Virus record (IMG/VR): IMGVR_UViG_2579778786_000004
Coordinates: 1 to 47,988 of that record
DNA length: 47,988 nucleotides
Strand: one strand, 5' to 3'
Source of the DNA: a virus
Taxonomy: Duplodnaviria; Heunggongvirae; Uroviricota; Caudoviricetes
Shown here: positions 3,786 through 46,211 of the stretch, piece by piece
Position numbering within the stretch: position 1 is the first letter of the stretch
Layout of the letters: each line of letters opens with the position of its first letter
Notes under the pieces: model-generated
Seen by the model: the letters and a program-made list of their open reading frames with translations, nothing else
Databases searched by the model: none
What the model was told of the DNA's origin: nothing
Made by a program: the position numbers and the translations under genes

Positions 3786-4589
3786 TTAAACAATTATGCC
3801 TCGGCGCAGGGCATAGCTTTGAATGTACGCATACATGGAGGCCTCTTCCGCATTCGTCAGCGCTCTGTCCCAGAGCATTGCCAGCATGATCTCCGTTGTT
3901 GCTACCGTAGTCCCAGATGGTCCACGCGTACCAATACGGAGAGTGGCGGTGTTGCGCAGGTCACGAACGTTACCCGATACCAGTGCCTGTGAAGCCTGCG
4001 TGCTCTTGGTGAGGTTTTTTACATAACGGTTGCCGGCGGTTCCTGAAACACCCGTCCCGTCGATTTTCCCCAAAATAGCCCTCCACCAGGTGTCATCTGC
4101 CGCTGCAAGAGAGGTTGGAAGTCCAGACTCTGCAGTTAATACAGCAGAGTTAGCGTTCGATGCGGTTCCGGCGACACCGGTATAGGATGCGCCAACCATT
4201 TGCTGCGTGCCGACAGCCTCAAATACGATACCGCAACCTTGTGCCGTTACCGAGTTACCGCTTTCAGTAATGACATTGTTAAAGTTGGTAAATAGCGGCA
4301 GGCGAACAGTTTGAGGGGCATATATTTTGGCAACAACAATCATCGTTGGGTTTGCCATTTCAGCAATATTAGTGTCGATATAATTGGTTAATGACAGCTG
4401 GGAACTATATTCCGTTACGTGATTTGGTGTTCCTACAATGGTGGGCTGGACTCCGCCAGCCACCTGGTTTACCCATAATCCTTTAGAGCCACCAAACCAC
4501 ACTCCAAGCAGGCCATCCATAACAGGAACATTAATGCCCATTGAAAAAGACTGAGCATTTACATTTTTTCCAATAATTACTGCACCCAT
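3786..4589 (-). CDS. Hypothetical protein, coupled to the upstream esterase-domain gene
   Basis: 267 aa ORF; start codon overlaps stop of the 4592-6925 gene (ATGGGTGCAGTAA context); no recognisable motif. Confidence 0.5.
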   Translation of the reverse strand: MGAVIIGKNVNAQSFSMGINVPVMDGLLGVWFGGSKGLWVNQVAGGVQPTIVGTPNHVTEYSSQLSLTNYIDTNIAEMANPTMIVVAKIYAPQTVRLPLFTNFNNVITESGNSVTAQGCGIVFEAVGTQQMVGASYTGVAGTASNANSAVLTAESGLPTSLAAADDTWWRAILGKIDGTGVSGTAGNRYVKNLTKSTQASQALVSGNVRDLRNTATLRIGTRGPSGTTVATTEIMLAMLWDRALTNAEEASMYAYIQSYALRRGIIV

Positions 4590-4591
4590 TT

Positions 4592-6925
4592 TTAGGCCTC
4601 TTCAGTAGCTGTAATAATGTCAGCGCCGCACCAGTTTTGCAGTGCGTACGGTTTACCATTTAGTTCAGAAATTGATTCTGCTGCTGGCGAGCCGGTTACC
4701 AGTTCCCACTTATATGTTGATAATGAGTCGTCACTATCAGCGATATTGTGAACGCCAGAATGATAGGTTTTATCTCCAAGCCAAATATTTACCGGAGCAA
4801 CCAGTTTTCTTGATGCGACAATTTTAACTACCACGTCAGAAGCTAATGTCACGGTCAAATCTGAACCATACAAAACCCCCTGCGCATCTTTTATGGTAAA
4901 ACCTTTATCGGCAAAACTTGTTGCCACATTTCCTACATATCCGGGAGTAAATTTAACTGGAGGGACGGGAACCGAAAAAGCTATGTTAACTGTATCTTCT
5001 CTAAAAATAGCCTCGCGCATGCGAAAAACTGGCCTTCCGCATCCCCTTTGCACTAAATCCATAACCTTGCCTGCATCGCATCCAAACCAGCGATATGAAT
5101 TAGCAAACATGTGGTTGTCGTTGCCATCAGGATTCACTGGTTTTGGCAAATGTCCCACCGGATTAACAAATGTCGCCAAGCCTGGATTATTGTCGCAGAA
5201 ATCAAGAAGTGCGCGAGACACCGCCATTGAATTTGAATCAGAGGTATACGTGCCACCCGGTTGATAATTATACCAGTGCGGTGGCAGTGTCTGACCAAAA
5301 ATAGCCATCCCATCCGTGCAAATGTTGTTATAAAGCGTATTTAATGCAGTCATATATGCATCGTACGCCGTTGAACCATCGTTCTCGCCCTGCATCCACA
5401 TGAAGCCACAAAAGCGCGATGTCTTTCCTGCAGCATCTGCTGCGGCTTTAATAGCCTGAAGCGCGGTAATTACGTGATTATAGAAGTTGGGAGTCGCTCC
5501 TTTACTGAGCTGCGCGATGGTCTTTCCCCCAACACCACAACATGCGCCGGCAAAGATTCGCGACGAATCATTATCGACCATCAACCGCTGGTTATGCAGC
5601 AACTTACCGAAGTTAAGCCAGCCAGAAAGCGGGGTTTCACCGAAACTACCGGATGAAGGGCTGAGAGTGCCATCATCTAGCTGTCGCACCTCAATTAAGT
5701 TATTGAGATTGCTGTTTCCTACCGGGCCAAACTGATCTGATGTCGTGCCGCTAACGTAATTAGAGCCTCTCGGAGAATTGCCAAGCATCAGGTTCCCGAA
5801 CATGTTCAATACAGAGAGAGGCACCTGGCTATTCGTTCCGACAGAAAAAGACTGTCCATAAACAATATATATGTTTATATCTGCTGTCGGCATCTGTGTC
5901 AGGTAATAACGCTGCCGAATTGCCCCAGCGACCAGAGATAGAGAGTTGTTAGCTATTCTTGCTACAGAATCGGTGCCTGAAACCTCACCATCAACCCTAA
6001 TTTTCGTCTGGAGTTTGAAGTCTTTAGTTAACCTAAGAAAAACAATCCCGTCAGGGTCCTGCATTGTAATAATGTCAGAGCTATTCCCATCAACATAGAA
6101 CCTAATGGCACTTGACTCAATGCCAATATTGTTCCCAAGCATAGAGACAATTTGTTGTATCCAGTCATATTTAACTGTAATACCTAAACCTTTAGCCACT
6201 CCATTATTGAAGCTGGCGAGAATGCGACCATCCTCATCCTGAACAGAAAACCCATCCTCTGTAACTTTAAAAAAAGAAAAAATGGCATTTTCAAGCAACT
6301 CAGGCATAAGAGATACTTTGCTTGTTTTAAACCCTACCCCGCTATCATCCTCTTCTACTTTGGCAGCAATAAATCCGTCTTCATCGCAAAAATCAATAAG
6401 AGTTTCACTGTCTCCATTTTGATAAATGCTTTCTGCTACAGAATCGGCTTTCACTTTTGCCTCATCAACTGCAGCCTGTGACGGCATTTTCCTCCCGGTA
6501 GGTTCCAGGGTCCCTCCGTTATTAATAACTTCAATAGCCAGCGCGCTATCATCCGGGCTGCGGTAATACGTGGCGCTTCCTGTCGGAATATTAGCAATAT
6601 CTGCCTGTGCATCAGCAAGCGTCATGTATTGCTTGCTCAGAGGGATCAGGTTTTGGCGGGCTTCATCAATAACAGCGTCGGTAGCAGCTGCCATTTTTTT
6701 AGTAGCCCCAGTCATCGTATCCCGGGCGTTACCAAAACGATCTATAAAAGTATCGCTTTCGCTGTTCAGGAAATCATCGTACGCCAGGGCGTTATCATTC
6801 AGATCCTTCATGCTATTTGAAGGTCTTGGATTGCCGGTATTATATCTTTTGTCCATACCTGTTCCTGTCTTCATCTTTTCAATGAAGCAATTAAGATTGA
6901 CGCCCCGCCCCTTCAGGGCTAACAT
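4592..6925 (-). CDS. Large prophage protein with carbohydrate O-acetylesterase (SASA/SGNH, DUF303-like) domain, resembling prophage NanS-p-type esterases; likely true start at 6856 (MDKRY, RBS AGGAACAGG)
   Basis: 777 aa; central motifs GQSFSVG and WMQGENDG match the sialate-O-acetylesterase-type signature (GQSN..G / W.QGE.D); located next to tail fibre genes. Confidence 0.6.
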   Translation of the reverse strand: MLALKGRGVNLNCFIEKMKTGTGMDKRYNTGNPRPSNSMKDLNDNALAYDDFLNSESDTFIDRFGNARDTMTGATKKMAAATDAVIDEARQNLIPLSKQYMTLADAQADIANIPTGSATYYRSPDDSALAIEVINNGGTLEPTGRKMPSQAAVDEAKVKADSVAESIYQNGDSETLIDFCDEDGFIAAKVEEDDSGVGFKTSKVSLMPELLENAIFSFFKVTEDGFSVQDEDGRILASFNNGVAKGLGITVKYDWIQQIVSMLGNNIGIESSAIRFYVDGNSSDIITMQDPDGIVFLRLTKDFKLQTKIRVDGEVSGTDSVARIANNSLSLVAGAIRQRYYLTQMPTADINIYIVYGQSFSVGTNSQVPLSVLNMFGNLMLGNSPRGSNYVSGTTSDQFGPVGNSNLNNLIEVRQLDDGTLSPSSGSFGETPLSGWLNFGKLLHNQRLMVDNDSSRIFAGACCGVGGKTIAQLSKGATPNFYNHVITALQAIKAAADAAGKTSRFCGFMWMQGENDGSTAYDAYMTALNTLYNNICTDGMAIFGQTLPPHWYNYQPGGTYTSDSNSMAVSRALLDFCDNNPGLATFVNPVGHLPKPVNPDGNDNHMFANSYRWFGCDAGKVMDLVQRGCGRPVFRMREAIFREDTVNIAFSVPVPPVKFTPGYVGNVATSFADKGFTIKDAQGVLYGSDLTVTLASDVVVKIVASRKLVAPVNIWLGDKTYHSGVHNIADSDDSLSTYKWELVTGSPAAESISELNGKPYALQNWCGADIITATEEA

Positions 6926-6933
6926 CGCCTTAC

Positions 6934-7221
6934 GTGTTTAAACGGTTAAATAAGAGAATGATTTTAATAAATAAATACACCCCTCCAACGCAGGAAGATT
7001 TAGCCAGACTGAAATCCGCACTAAATTACTCCGGAAACCAAATGGCAGGGCTCGCAGGTGTAGCCAGCGATAGCCAATGGCGGAAATACACTGGCGGAGA
7101 GAGCCCCAGGGTAATGTCAAGACACATACTGTTTTATATTGCAGCTCAGCTTGTTCTGTCTGATGAGCAACTTAACAATGTAATAAATAAAATGCGCGAT
7201 ATTGGCGCGGAGATAAAATAA
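6934..7221 (+). CDS. Small putative helix-turn-helix protein, coupled to the downstream acyltransferase
   Basis: 95 aa; segment GNQMAGLAGVASDSQWRKYTGG resembles an XRE-type HTH; stop overlaps the ATG of the next gene (TAATG). Confidence 0.4.
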   Translation: MFKRLNKRMILINKYTPPTQEDLARLKSALNYSGNQMAGLAGVASDSQWRKYTGGESPRVMSRHILFYIAAQLVLSDEQLNNVINKMRDIGAEIK

Positions 7222-8312
7222 TGCTTGGCCTAATAAGGTTTTTTTTGGCATCGTGCGTCATTGCTTTTCACTTAACGGCTCGCATACCTGCACTTGGCAA
7301 CTTTGCAGTGAATTGCTTCTATGTTATTAGTGGTTTTTTAATAACATACATTTTGCATGAAACATACAAGTTCAACTTCTCTATGTTTTGGAAAAATAGA
7401 ATACTGAGGTTATTTCCGGCATATATATTTTTTCTCGTCATGGGCTTTCTTATTATAAAATTAATTCCATCCGCAAAGGAATTCCACTCAAACTGGACAG
7501 GCAATTTCTTACTTGGAGATTTATTAGGAAACATCTTAATCTTCCCCTGGGCTTTCCTTTCTGATAATGCTGTAGCAAATCCATTCGGTGCCTTTTCATC
7601 CATTTATCACTTTGCTATTGATGGTAATAGATTCAGAATAGTCACATCATCATGGTCAGTGGGTGTTGAGATAACATGTTATTTTTTGTTGTGGCTTTTC
7701 ATAGCCCGAAATAAATTTACAGCCATTACGTCGATTCTGCTTTCACTGCTTTATCATGCTTACGTATATGTAGTACACCATTCTTTTGATATGGCGTATT
7801 TCCCATTCCTTGCTGCAACACTTCCTTTTAGCATGGGTTCTCTGGGTTATTTTTCCCATAGAAAATTCAAAGCTATGTATCTTTCTCCACACAAAGCTTT
7901 TTTAATAACATTTATTTGCATCGGGATTTTTATTACCAATTGGCATTTATATACAATTAATGCATTAGGTCAGCACAACATAATACTTTACTACACCAAT
8001 AATGTAATAGCATTGTTTACAACCCTGGTATTATTAAAAATAAAGACAAACATACATCTTGAGAAAATACTCAAGTGGTTTGGTGATCTGGCCTATCCAA
8101 TTTTTCTTTGTCAATATTTTGGTGGATTTCTAGCATGGCTTGCTATTGGTGGTGAAAATCGTGGCTTATCCATCTTTTTATTAGGCTACCCAATATCAAT
8201 TGCACTTGGGATCGTTTGTGTAATATTAATAGACAAGCCACTAATTAAAATTAGAGCAAAAATAAGGGCGGACGCTCAAAGCAAAAATAATCAGGAAAAC
8301 TCTTCAAGGTAA
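7221..8312 (+). CDS. Integral-membrane acyltransferase family 3 (O-antigen/polysaccharide O-acetyltransferase-like, Oac/OafA type)
   Basis: 363 aa, about 10 predicted TM segments; N-terminal FH and FYVISGFLITY...RILRLFPAY motifs typical of acyltransferase-3; markedly AT-rich compared with neighbours. Confidence 0.75.
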   Translation: MLGLIRFFLASCVIAFHLTARIPALGNFAVNCFYVISGFLITYILHETYKFNFSMFWKNRILRLFPAYIFFLVMGFLIIKLIPSAKEFHSNWTGNFLLGDLLGNILIFPWAFLSDNAVANPFGAFSSIYHFAIDGNRFRIVTSSWSVGVEITCYFLLWLFIARNKFTAITSILLSLLYHAYVYVVHHSFDMAYFPFLAATLPFSMGSLGYFSHRKFKAMYLSPHKAFLITFICIGIFITNWHLYTINALGQHNIILYYTNNVIALFTTLVLLKIKTNIHLEKILKWFGDLAYPIFLCQYFGGFLAWLAIGGENRGLSIFLLGYPISIALGIVCVILIDKPLIKIRAKIRADAQSKNNQENSSR

Positions 8313-29757: not shown

Positions 29758-30230
29758 ACCTCAATCTCTCTGACCGTTCCGCCAACTTCTTTGAATTTTG
29801 CAATCAGGCTGTCAGCCTTATGCTCGAACTGGCCATAGCCAGCGCCCGGCAGTGAAGCCCAGATATTGCTGCAACGGTCGATAGCCTGACGAATATCACC
29901 GCGATCAATCATCGGTAAAGCGCCACGCTCTTTAATCTGTTGCAGTGCCACAGCGTCCTGGCTTTTCGGAGAGAAGTCTTTCAGGCCAAGCTGCTTGCGG
30001 TAGGCATCCCACCAACGGGAAAGAAGCTGGTAGCGTCCGGCGGCTGTTGATTTGAGTTTGGGGTTTAGCGTGACAAGTTTGCGAGGGTGATCGGAGTAAT
30101 CAGTGAATAGCTCTCCGCCAACAATGACGTCATAACCATGATTTCTGGTTTTCTGCCGTCCGTTATCAGTTCCCTCTGACCACGCCAGCATATCGAGGAA
30201 CGCCTTACGTTGATTATTGATTTCCACCAT
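29754..30230 (-). CDS. R: Endolysin R (lytic transglycosylase, lambda R-like)
   Basis: 158 aa; sequence closely resembles lambda R as recalled. Confidence 0.9.
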
Positions 30231-30537
30231 CTTCTATTCCGGCTTTTTTAGCAGCGAAGCGTTTGATAAGCGAACCAATCGAGTCAGTACCGATGTAGCC
30301 GATGAACACGCTCGTTATATAAGCGAGATTGCTACTTAGTCCGGCGAAGTCGAGAAGGTCACGAATGAACCAGGCGATAATGGCGCACATCGTTGCGTCG
30401 ATTACTGTTTTTGTAAACGCACCGCCATTATATCTGCCGCGAAGGTACGCCATTGCAAACGCAAGGATTGCCCCGATGCCTTGTTCCTTTGCCGCGAGAA
30501 TGGCGGCTAACAGGTCATGTTTTTCTGGCATCTTCAT
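30214..30537 (-). CDS. S: Holin S (lambda S-like, class I)
   Basis: 107 aa beginning [20 protein letters not shown] with dual-start motif, three TM segments. Confidence 0.9.
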
Positions 30538-30779
30538 GTCTTAGCCCCAATAAGGGGATTTGCTCTATTTATTTAGGAATAAGGTCGATTACTGATAGAA
30601 CAAATCCAGGCTACTGTGTTTAGTAATCAGATTTGTTCGTGATCGATATGCACGGGCAAAACGGCAGGATGTTGTTAGCGCGACCTCCTGCCACCCGCTT
30701 TCACGAAGGTCATGTGTAGAAGTCCGCAACGTAACTATCACTGATGAATTCAGGATAGCCAGTGGCTACGGCTCAGTTA

Positions 30780-30855
30780 TGGTGCTGTTTAACGGACTTG
30801 AACCGCTACCCATTCGCTTACAAGGCGACCGCTCTATCATTGGAGCTAAAACAGC
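30780..30855 (-). tRNA. Phage-encoded tRNA-Thr (anticodon UGU)
   Basis: 76 nt cloverleaf by hand: perfect 7 bp acceptor stem GCTGTTT/AAACAGC, D-stem GCTC/GAGC, anticodon loop CT-TGT-AA, T-loop TTCAAGT, 3' ACCA; D-loop lacks GG. Confidence 0.6.
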
Positions 30856-30860
30856 ATGTT

Positions 30861-30935
30861 TGGCGGGACAGCGTGGACTCGAACCACGATAAGAAGGTTA
30901 ACAGCCTTCCGTAATGACCTTTATACGACTGACCC
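30861..30935 (-). tRNA. Phage-encoded tRNA-Asn (anticodon GUU), one T-T mismatch in acceptor stem
   Basis: 75 nt: anticodon stem GAAGG/CCTTC, loop CT-GTT-AA identical to E. coli tRNA-Asn loop, T-arm CGTGG-TTCGAGT-CCACG, 3' GCCA. Confidence 0.6.
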
Positions 30936-30998
30936 AAATAAAAAAAGCCACCGTTGCAACTTAAGAGTTACTAACGGCAGCTTACCTTCTAATTATGG

Positions 30999-31517
30999 CT
31001 AAATGGATAATTGCATGTCAAGGCCTTTAACAGCAACATGCTTAACTTTCTCAACACGTTTACGCATTTTGAAAGCATTTTGCATTGGCTGGTACAAAAC
31101 AAATAACGACGCTTTCAGGATGTCGTCAATTTCGTTTCTACAGGTTGCCAGTGAAGGTTTTCTCCATCCCTCGCCACCACGTCCACACATCTTGCGTGGC
31201 TTTGCAGTCGCGTGATAGTAGGATGCAATTGCTCGCTTAGATGAACCATGAGCATAGTAGCTGAGGAGGATGCCAAAGGCTTTTTTGTCAATGTACATGA
31301 CGGAATCGACGACCTGAGAAATCAACATTCCATCATCATCATTACACATTGGCCTTGTCATAACTCTTCCCGGCTCTACGCTCTCCATGAACTTCGCTAT
31401 TACGCTGCTCATGCGCTTTTCCAGACGACCTGAATAAACCCATGCGCCCCACAGTTCAAGCCAGCCATTCAGCCACTCGTGCTGCTCTTTGGTGAGTTTT
31501 AGTTCTCTTATGCCCAT
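30999..31517 (-). CDS. Late-gene antiterminator Q-like protein
   Basis: 172 aa, Cys-containing, located between the nin region and the lysis cassette. Confidence 0.6.
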
Positions 31518-46010: not shown

Positions 46011-46211
46011 ATGCAACACGAACTACAGCCTGATTCACTGGTTGATTTGAAATTCATCATGGCTGATACTGGCTTTGGTAAAACCTTCATCTATGACCGG
46101 ATTAAGTCCGGCGACCTGCCAAAAGCCAAAGTTATCCACGGTCGAGCAAGATGGTTATATCGTGACCATTGTGAATTCAAAAATAAGCTCTTAAGCCGCG
46201 CCAATGGGTAA
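46011..46211 (+). CDS. torI: Excisionase / recombination directionality factor, AlpA family (TorI-like)
   Basis: 66 aa; matches E. coli TorI as recalled; sits immediately inside attR. Confidence 0.8.
   Translation: MQHELQPDSLVDLKFIMADTGFGKTFIYDRIKSGDLPKAKVIHGRARWLYRDHCEFKNKLLSRANG

Follow-up and report, generated by a model that had tools for sequence, protein, structure and literature searches.

A tRNA-Asn and tRNA-Thr cassette in the late leader of a lambdoid prophage as a probable source of nuclease-resistant replacement tRNAs

Why does a temperate phage carry two slightly unusual tRNA genes between its late promoter and its lysis genes? The question is raised by a stretch of viral DNA of 47,988 nucleotides (IMG/VR record IMGVR_UViG_2579778786_000004; hereafter the window), which contains an apparently intact lambdoid prophage of ~45 kb with host flanks on both sides. 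The left host flank has a formate/nitrite-transporter gene followed by tRNA-Arg(CCU), and the right host flank has a LacY-like gene. The prophage carries an integrase with tail-fibre and acyltransferase accessory genes, a lambdoid early region (CI-like repressor, CIII, Erf and SSB) and a late region encoding a contractile tail (sheath gene) and a gpA-type terminase. A reading of this DNA from its letters alone (the sequence-only reading) placed tRNA-Thr-UGU together with tRNA-Asn-GUU at 30780-30935 in the late-operon leader, described both as slightly non-canonical and suggested that they either compensate for the codon usage of AT-rich accessory genes or are partly decayed. The features that bear on these suggestions are as follows.

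1009-1083: tRNA-Arg(cct), the att-site tRNA, anticodon CCU (ARAGORN; Infernal 63.4 bits, intact)
1054 and 45976: repeats of the 16-nt att core
30214..30537, minus strand: holin/antiholin S, first protein-coding gene of the late operon (107-aa ORF)
30538..30779, minus strand: conserved untranslated leader from the tRNA cassette to the holin, equivalent to the lambdoid 'boundary sequence' bsq3
30780..30855, minus strand: tRNA-Thr(UGU), 76 nt, CCA encoded (ARAGORN, tgt; RF00005, 58.1 bits)
30856..30860, minus strand: 5-nt spacer AACAT between both tRNAs
30861..30935, minus strand: tRNA-Asn(GUU), 75 nt, CCA encoded, discriminator G73 (ARAGORN, gtt; RF00005, 55.3 bits)
30936..30987, minus strand: short late leader RNA with qut region and t_R', counterpart of the phage 21 'aRNA'
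30992..31021, minus strand: late promoter P_R', overlapping the 3' end of Q (TTGACA, 18-nt spacer, CATAAT)
30999..31517, minus strand: Q-family late antiterminator gene of the phage 21 / Sf6 gene 59 type (172-aa ORF)

Both tRNAs are recognized by prediction programs, at exactly the coordinates first given. ARAGORN calls the two genes, and Infernal scores both above the Rfam RF00005 gathering score of 29 bits (tRNA-Thr E-value: 4.4e-10; tRNA-Asn E-value: 2.5e-9). They lie on the minus strand, which had been left unstated, and are transcribed in the order Asn, then Thr. tRNA-Thr has the terminal features G1-C72, C2-G71 and A73, an anticodon loop CUUGUAA (U33, purine 37) and a T-loop UUCAAGU. tRNA-Asn has the corresponding loops CUGUUAA (U33, purine 37) and UUCGAGU, with A14 and GG present. 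Read against established knowledge, the sequences contain the identity elements of ThrRS (G1-C72, C2-G71, G35 and U36) and AsnRS (G34 U35 U36 and G73). The description of both as slightly non-canonical is a fair one, and their scores fall inside the range of genuine host tRNAs (host thrU: 73.8 bits, host asnT: 72.6 bits, host tyrU: 53.4 bits; Sf6 tRNA-Thr: 61.5 bits). The claim that the anticodon and T arms are perfect stands for the tRNA-Asn anticodon arm (GAAGG-CUGUUAA-CCUUC, with a full 5-bp stem) but not for that of tRNA-Thr (GUCGC-CUUGUAA-GCGAA), in which G27.A43 is mismatched; the tRNA-Thr T-stem also includes a G50.U64 wobble. The T-T mismatch noted in the tRNA-Asn acceptor stem is flagged by Infernal as U4.U69 and is kept in every copy, even the diverged one of a Klebsiella phage. 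The D-stem of the same tRNA has a U13.U22 mismatch.

Irregularities of this kind could mark decaying or hitch-hiking pseudo-tRNAs, remnants of an old capture with no present function. The scores are ~15-17 bits under those of the host isoacceptors, the window copies carry C14, U4.U69, U13.U22 and a G19A change (discussed below), 45 of 80 loci with the same Q have no cassette, and the second tRNA of phage L/ST64T has been remodelled such that ARAGORN rejects it. Comparison among copies argues for the opposite. In an alignment of 15 distinct tRNA-Thr sequences, 12 of them of lambdoid type, 95.2% of cells are paired and eight pairs have changed on both sides (matched by 0/500 shuffles; slid controls give 0-1 pairs). 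Compensatory changes also separate the tRNA-Asn from the Klebsiella phage copy, at 6:67, 7:66 and 28:42, with U4.U69 retained. Pairing is thus maintained by compensatory substitutions in all stems, which indicates selection on the cloverleaf. The Thr G27.A43 pair is unpaired in 12/12 lambdoid-type sequences; since this mismatch and U4.U69 are kept across copies rather than occurring at random, they are conserved features and not decay. The tRNA-Asn is identical (75/75) in the window, phage 21, Sf6, phage L and HK446, phages that differ elsewhere, and the anticodons, synthetase identity elements and CCA are strictly conserved among cassette copies. Orthologous tRNA-Thr was functional in two independent studies (PMC12445682; bioRxiv 10.64898/2026.07.10.737580). 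The suggestion of a partly decayed cassette is not supported by these observations, and the present absence of function that it implies is very improbable. Judged from their sequences, both tRNAs are most likely functional phage genes within a known module. Recent capture from the host is ruled out by the ~60-70% of positions that match K-12 thrU/asnT (read off alignments). A degenerate-pattern scan of genome contigs (tRNA-Asn anticodon and T arms) returned unrelated tRNA-Asn genes from distant phyla, and enterobacterial representatives were absent from its output.

One feature of the window copy stands apart. The tRNA-Thr D-loop, CAAUGAUA, reads G18 A19, and the lack of GG in the sequence-only reading is here traced to a single G19-to-A change private to this copy. 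The best E. coli genome copies (175/176) differ by this change alone, which is found in 0/33 IMG/VR copies and in no full-length phage match (best 97.4%). The gene also has C14 instead of A14, a substitution common to all lambdoid and Klebsiella copies, and so departs from the U8-A14 and G18 G19 consensus at one shared and one private position. This is a departure from the tRNA consensus and not an exclusion from the tRNA class; orthologous tRNA-Thr with C14 is functional (PMC12445682). The window tRNA-Thr differs from that of phage 21, Sf6 and HK446 at four positions (5, 19, 26 and 68), none of them in the anticodon arm. The 5:68 pair is U-A in the window and G-C in phage 21, a compensatory change, and position 26 is G in the window and A in phage 21. 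The G19-C56 elbow pair is near-universal in tRNAs. Because G19A removes this pair, the window copy of tRNA-Thr may be impaired. Either a private, mildly deleterious mutation or an error in sequencing could account for the change, which, alone among the odd features, could represent an incipient defect of the window copy.

The placement of the pair in a late-operon leader of phage origin is borne out by its surroundings. The order in the window is P_R', leader, t_R', tRNA-Asn, tRNA-Thr and holin, all on the minus strand, with endolysin and Rz downstream of the holin on the same strand as the tRNAs and Q. In E. coli records that match, the counterpart of the window Q is an 'antiterminator Q family protein', and in Sf6 it is 'gene 59, similar to phage 21 Q'; the window Q has 597 relatives in IMG/VR. 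P_R' matches the consensus at 11/12 positions (consensus scan), and the Sf6 record has P_R' at the equivalent site, 'nearly identical to phage 21 late promoter'. As read from the sequence, the t_R' stem is formed by GCTGCCGTT (30981-30973) pairing with AACGGTGGC (30955-30947) and is followed by the T-run TTTTTTTATTT (30946-30936); tRNA-Asn begins at the next base. A simple terminator scan with a loop limit of 3-8 nt did not return t_R', presumably because its loop, as read, is 17 nt. The 50-nt 'aRNA' of the phage 21 record maps onto window positions 30987-30936, its last base adjoining tRNA-Asn, and Sf6 has qut and 't R'' annotated at the equivalent of this leader. On the far side of the tRNAs, the counterpart of the holin is labelled 'phage holin, lambda family' in matching records, and the 241 nt preceding the holin are bsq3 in the CUS-3 record. 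The Sf6 GenBank record shows the same series: P_R', qut, t_R', tRNA-Asn and tRNA-Thr ('similar to phage 21'), and holin.

The cassette is already known. It has been annotated since the phage 21 and Sf6 records (also in SfI and BTP1) and was described in 2013 in SfI, where the same arrangement was noted in Sf6, ST64T, PS3 and p21 (Sun et al., 2013; PMC3636060); its tRNA-Thr was tested functionally in 2025-2026. The 156-nt pair of the window is 97.4% identical to those of phage 21, Sf6, SfI and BTP1 and 96.8% identical to that of HK446. A 701-nt region around the tRNAs has matches in 162 phage records and in 1,287/5,426 complete E. coli genomes, and the tRNA pair itself is present in 369 of these 5,426 genomes. 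Of 80 IMG/VR loci with a Q that shares 97% identity or more with the window Q, 33 have both tRNAs, two have tRNA-Asn alone and 45 have neither, so the cassette is dispensable. In the loci that lack the tRNAs, homology to the window breaks off at the t_R' T-run and restarts at the tRNA-Thr 3' end, in the leader 30538..30779, which identifies the pair as a discrete, swappable cassette. The flanks of this slot are the lambdoid 'boundary sequences' bsq4 and bsq3 in the CUS-3 record. In HK446 the cassette lies behind a lambda-type Q/P_R'/t_R', with homology beginning at the T-run, and is thus independent of Q type; it also occurs alongside different integrases. Asn-only loci exist (including phage L/ST64T with its remodelled second tRNA), and no Thr-only locus was seen among the 80 same-Q loci and the phage copies compared. 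In this set tRNA-Thr is always accompanied by tRNA-Asn, and tRNA-Asn persists where tRNA-Thr has been lost or remodelled.

The slot of the tRNA-less loci is filled by unannotated sequence of 136-809 bp, of which there are 24 distinct versions. The 5' part of this alternative cassette is a long hairpin with a conserved stem (CACAACAGGUAAGAGCA...UGCUCUUAUCGUUGUG) and a hypervariable tip; z-scores of the folds are -3.1 to -5.9 in three of four versions and -1.6 in the L074 version. In most versions, the second domain ends in a covarying hairpin (GUCGG/CCGAC, GCCGG/CCGGC, ACCGG/CCGGU or GUUGG/CCAAC) followed by (C)RCCACAAYCCA, the end of which coincides with the CCA of the window tRNA-Thr; the L074 version ends otherwise. 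The alternative cassettes have no Rfam match at the gathering score and, at E<=1, a single weak tmRNA-like match to the T-arm/acceptor (20.2 bits vs 47). ARAGORN finds neither a tRNA nor a tmRNA in them, and no known RNA family could be assigned. One version has a hammerhead-like CUGACGAG...CGAAAC core that was not confirmed by Rfam, and another has an HNH-AP2 endonuclease ORF.

The position of the cassette, bounded exactly by the t_R' T-run on one side and the conserved leader on the other, would also suit a role in RNA processing, in which the tRNAs serve as RNase P/RNase E sites that detach the t_R' leader and set a stable 5' end for the late mRNA, with decoding secondary. The other structured RNAs found in the same slot, most of which (L074 excepted) have a tRNA-like T-arm/acceptor/CCA end, mildly suggest such a function. 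It is difficult to reconcile with the strict conservation of anticodons, synthetase identity elements and CCA or with the decoding of ACA in vivo by orthologues (PMC12445682), and as the main purpose of the cassette it is quite improbable. A different explanation, suggested for HK446, is that the phage tRNA makes up for a host tRNA gene that the integrating prophage has disrupted, which is a general pattern for some prophages (bioRxiv 10.64898/2026.07.10.737580). In the window, however, the tRNA at the att site is tRNA-Arg(CCU), which is intact and of neither Thr nor Asn specificity, and the cassette is located mid-prophage, is late-controlled and is found with different integrases. Compensation for the att-site tRNA is contradicted by the intact tRNA-Arg(CCU), and its probability here is close to negligible.

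Codon usage provides a more substantial alternative. If the cassette acted purely in codon supplementation, it would supply extra tRNA for over-used codons, chiefly ACA (read by the single-copy minor thrU), and nuclease resistance would be irrelevant. Codons were compared using one simple ORF caller on the prophage and on 50 kb of K-12. ACA is used 13.1 times per 1000 in the prophage (11.2 in the late operon) and 5.3 times per 1000 in the K-12 sample (odds ratio: 2.5, p: 2e-12). The Asn codons do not follow: AAC is unbiased (24.6 vs 23.7 per 1000, not significant) and AAU is just 1.6-fold enriched (22.4 vs 14.2 per 1000; odds ratio: 1.6), and the host has four asn tRNA genes. The codons AGA (8.5 vs 2.4 per 1000), AGG (5.6 vs 1.2 per 1000) and AUA (9.4 vs 2.9 per 1000) are enriched 3.2-4.7-fold in the prophage, above the 2.5-fold of ACA, yet none of the three has a phage tRNA. 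The SfI paper found the same ACA bias (17.3 vs 7.1) and proposed a codon supply role, and its authors likewise found no rationale for Asn (PMC3636060). The genes richest in ACA are the integrase-proximal accessory genes (17.4 per 1000), which lie outside the late unit and so would not be co-expressed with the tRNAs. The AT-rich accessory genes near the integrase lie on the opposite strand or are not part of the Q-dependent unit, and their expression would fall in the lysogen, while the tRNAs sit behind t_R'. Codon supplementation also leaves unexplained the rewritten anticodon stems, the conserved G27.A43 and the observation that host ThrU gives little or no protection against the Old nuclease whereas the phage versions protect (PMC12445682). 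The compensation proposed in the sequence-only reading therefore receives weak support from ACA and is countered by the Asn codons and by AGA, AGG and AUA. Codon supply can be a secondary benefit for ACA, but it does not account for why Asn was chosen or why the stems were rewritten; as the sole explanation it is rather unlikely.

The anticodons UGU and GUU are those of host tRNAs reported as nuclease targets. P2 Old is lethal because it cleaves host tRNA-ThrU(UGU) at a CNG pseudo-palindrome of the anticodon stem, both strands of which are cut; it also cleaves tRNA-Asn(GUU), more slowly (PMC12445682). Phage tRNA-Thr(UGU) variants resist P2 Old and rescue its toxicity, and host tRNA-Thr genes, including ThrU, provide little or no protection (PMC12445682). 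Among these variants, phage 21 'encodes a tRNAThr with a UGU anticodon' that 'also protected against P2-OLD' and restores ACA decoding in vivo; resistance was ascribed to a shorter anticodon stem and the altered pairs C28U/G42A (PMC12445682). The Thr(UGU) tRNA of HK446 restores plating of Old-sensitive phages (bioRxiv 10.64898/2026.07.10.737580). A second nuclease, AriB of PARIS, acts on the tRNAs Lys(UUU), Thr(UGU) and Asn(GUU); its cut falls between positions 40 and 41, where the context is U36AAUC, and escape requires the T5 variants of Lys, Thr and Asn (PMC12409363).

The window tRNAs are altered at these sites. The anticodon arm of tRNA-Thr is identical to that of phage 21, with UCG at 28-30 and CGA at 40-42 (CUG and CAG in the host) and 27:43 unpaired. 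tRNA-Asn has AAG at 28-30 and CUU at 40-42 (CGG and CCG in the host). At the AriB site, tRNA-Thr reads UAAGC|G vs UAAUC|A in the host, and tRNA-Asn reads UAACC|U vs UAAUC|C. Neither tRNA has CNG at 28-30 or 40-42, and both differ from the host at 39 and 41. The motif is retained in the Klebsiella tRNA-Asn and in the T5/P1-type tRNA-Thr, so its loss is not universal. The resistance of tRNA-Thr to Old, shown for the phage 21 and HK446 orthologues, is probably shared by the window copy, as judged from its identical anticodon arm. On this evidence, the cassette probably provides nuclease-resistant replacement tRNAs under Q-dependent late control, downstream of t_R'.

The proposed model for the action of these tRNAs is as follows. 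RNA polymerase starting at P_R' would normally halt at t_R', ~50 nt downstream, and Q-modified polymerase would pass t_R' into tRNA-Asn, tRNA-Thr and the lysis and structural genes. The tRNAs would be co-produced with the late mRNAs and excised by host tRNA-processing enzymes. Competing P2-like prophages or satellites may carry Old-family Toprim nucleases (P2 Old or PARIS AriB), which would cut the anticodon stems of host tRNA-Thr(UGU), which alone reads ACA, and of host tRNA-Asn(GUU). As the phage tRNAs keep the anticodon and synthetase identity and have rewritten anticodon stems (no CNG and a stem shortened by G27.A43 in Thr; no CNG in Asn), they would escape cleavage and allow late translation to continue. 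Added capacity for ACA, used 2.5 times as often in the prophage as in the host sample, would be a secondary benefit. For the window prophage itself the Q-dependence, what tRNA-Asn does and whether the A19 copy is competent are matters of inference.

Several points limit what such a system could achieve. Early proteins and Q would need to be translated before the spare tRNAs appear, because expression is late and Q-dependent, and as the cassette has no tRNA-Lys(UUU), the main AriB target, it cannot alone defeat PARIS. A single tRNA did not rescue lambda itself, nor did it relieve Old toxicity in recB cells; the preferred targets of Old in the same study were Thr, Gly, fMet, Val and Pro, with Asn not among them, and its authors considered that the HK446 tRNA may be an adaptation to temperate life, given that HK446 also has a protein inhibitor, Oad2 (bioRxiv 10.64898/2026.07.10.737580). 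A RecBCD-inhibitor type of Old trigger was sought in the recombination region of the window prophage, where the proteins recognized were limited to CIII, Erf, SSB and one that is endonuclease/Lar-like. Self-immunity against a tRNA nuclease encoded by the prophage is unsupported: PADLOC returned 0 hits among nine accessory ORFs of the prophage. With respect to expression, lysogen RNA-seq of BTP1 set its tRNA pair apart from five other genes at TPM>100 (PMC7067206), which suggests that the pair is also highly expressed, a point that the paper does not state.

The pairing of Asn, then Thr recurs in a Klebsiella lambdoid phage (Asn-Phe-Thr-Arg between antiterminator and holin), a T5-like phage and P1-like phages, in keeping with selection acting in common on these two specificities. 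In HK446 the tRNA-Asn is unannotated, and it is unmentioned where the HK446 tRNA-Thr was tested (bioRxiv 10.64898/2026.07.10.737580). We tentatively suggest that the lambdoid tRNA-Asn(GUU) might be a second nuclease-resistant spare part, directed against Old-family Toprim nucleases such as PARIS AriB and P2 Old, and the slot a swappable locus for counter-defence RNAs whose alternative alleles serve a related purpose. This wider proposal is possible rather than probable.

The cassette, if so interpreted, exemplifies a recent principle by which phage tRNAs act less for codon usage and more to replace host tRNAs destroyed by abortive-infection nucleases. For the window the practical value is in annotation: the genes are real members of a known module, and what is odd in their stems is conserved, not damage. 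Three points are modestly new. The partner tRNA-Asn likewise has an anticodon stem altered at the sites of Old and AriB; the cassette, independent of Q type, shares its recombination slot with an uncharacterised tRNA-like RNA; and the private G19A constitutes a natural test of the importance of the elbow pair in a counter-defence tRNA.

The closest known systems are the pairs of phage 21 and HK446, which share with the window the site directly after t_R', the tRNA-Asn (75/75) and the Thr anticodon arm, including G27.A43. The window differs from phage 21 in having U5-A68 in place of G5-C68, G26 in place of A26 and the private A19, and from HK446 in having phage 21-type rather than lambda-type Q/P_R'/t_R' upstream. 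Sf6, SfI, BTP1, SPN9CC and other P22-like or lambdoid phages have the same series of P_R', qut, t_R', tRNA-Asn, tRNA-Thr and holin. Virions of the Sf6/BTP1-type group are mostly short-tailed and P22-like, whereas the window prophage is contractile-tailed, like SfI; as a mosaic module, the cassette does not depend on virion type. T5, whose tRNA-Lys/Thr/Asn variants neutralise PARIS, likewise has Thr-UGU and Asn-GUU with changes at 39/41 near the AriB site (PMC11464382, PMC12409363), and in T5-like phages Asn and Thr are adjacent in the same order as in the window. Unlike the window prophage, T5 is lytic and has ~20 or more tRNAs, the key tRNA-Lys(UUU) among them; the T5-type pair is ~74% identical to that of the window and its tRNA-Thr retains CNG. 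P1, a temperate coliphage, has adjacent Asn(GUU) and Thr(UGU) genes (tRNA1 and tRNA2), but these have no Q-dependent leader, the Thr is ~78% identical and the Asn retains UAAUC|A at the AriB site. Finally, the tRNA genes ileZ-argN-argO of Stx phage 933W are reported to lie between P_R' and stx (Plunkett et al., 1999). Phage 933W resembles the window in having tRNA genes in a lambdoid late leader, from Q/P_R' to the first late genes. Its tRNAs (Ile, Arg and Arg), however, are for the rare codons AUA, AGA and AGG and are unrelated in sequence, and their usual explanation is codon supplementation.

An unannotated structured RNA fills the site between the t_R' T-run and the conserved leader before holin in 42 of the 45 IMG/VR loci that carry the same Q (at least 97% identical to that of the window) and lack tRNAs. 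Across the 42 loci, this slot RNA comes in 24 distinct versions. It forms a long hairpin, conserved along the stem and hypervariable at the tip, followed by a second domain, which in most versions ends with a covarying T-arm-like hairpin, an acceptor-like strand and CCA; this CCA occupies the same position as the CCA of tRNA-Thr. The slot RNA matches no Rfam family at the gathering score, and ARAGORN makes no call on it. Its sequence is also carried by phages CUS-3, HK629, HK75, IME10 and Huey. Its location is as follows.

About 2078-2380 of loci L004, L009, L018, L024, L034, L052, L072, L074 and others: slot RNA, at the position equivalent to window 30780-30935

Other elements are found at or near this site. 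The alternative cassette of L072 contains a hammerhead-like core at about 2100-2160 (GCGCGC-CUGACGAG-UCCAUGAGGGA-CGAAAC-GCAUUAGC-GUC), for which Rfam gives no confirmation at E<=1. Within that of L041 lies an ORF of about 170 aa (about 2150-2800) that resembles HNH-AP2 homing endonucleases. A 704-bp insertion (positions 2027-2730 in L026, L044, L049, L057, L065, L066, L069, L070, L079, L081 and L082) also encodes an HNH-AP2 homing-endonuclease-like protein (MKEIKLTPEMVLSVVDYNPSSGDFHW...). This insertion lies after the -10 hexamer of the late promoter P_R' and before the leader and t_R', splitting the qut/terminator region from the promoter.

Within the window, ACA density peaks in the genes of the integrase-proximal accessory block. 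The features of this block and of the attachment-site flank are listed below.

Window 3786-8312: accessory block, integrase-proximal
Window 4592-6925: 777-aa protein with a SASA/acetylesterase domain, in the accessory block
Window 7221-8312: Acyl_transf_3 gene (35% GC), in the accessory block, on the opposite strand
Window 45976: attR core of the prophage (TTGCAGGTTCGATTCC)
Window 46011-46208: small AlpA-like ORF, past the attR core
Window 46285: tRNA-Arg 3' end, second copy (CTGCAGGGGACACCA), past the attR core

The 777-aa protein is probably a tail fibre or spike, and the Acyl_transf_3 gene looks like an O-antigen acetylation moron. Together, the AlpA-like ORF and the second tRNA-Arg 3' end suggest that this is what remains of another element that had integrated at the same tRNA-Arg(CCU) site.

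A Q/tRNA/holin module with 98.7% identity to that of the window is found on NZ_CP141750.1 of E. coli 2023CK-01482, a circular record of 47,948 bp (close to the window in size) labelled 'plasmid unnamed4'. The chromosome of this strain also has the module. NZ_CP141750.1 is possibly an excised circular prophage that was assembled as a replicon.

The tRNA-Asn(GUU) of phage HK446 (NC_019714; L113, 701-775) is identical to that of the window and lies immediately upstream of the HK446 tRNA-Thr; the RefSeq record has no annotation for this tRNA-Asn. An identical tRNA-Asn is found in phage L cII-101, ST64T and ST160, in all of which the anticodon arm of the second tRNA has been replaced.

Phage L cII-101 (L108) 781-852: second tRNA, annotated as tRNA-Leu(UAA), Rfam 42.1 bits

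ARAGORN rejects the second tRNA of this lineage, which is a tRNA-Thr derivative, either retargeted or decaying. The adjacent pair, with Asn(GUU) first and Thr(UGU) second, is found again in unrelated phage groups.

Klebsiella phage ST101-KPC2phi6.1 (L109) 701-1020: Asn-Thr pair
T5-like phage Cyrano (L110) 273-425: Asn-Thr pair
P1-like phage RCS47 (L111) 525-678: Asn-Thr pair

In the Klebsiella phage, which is lambdoid, the array has the same Q-to-holin position as in the window but is expanded to Asn-Phe-Thr-Arg(UCU).
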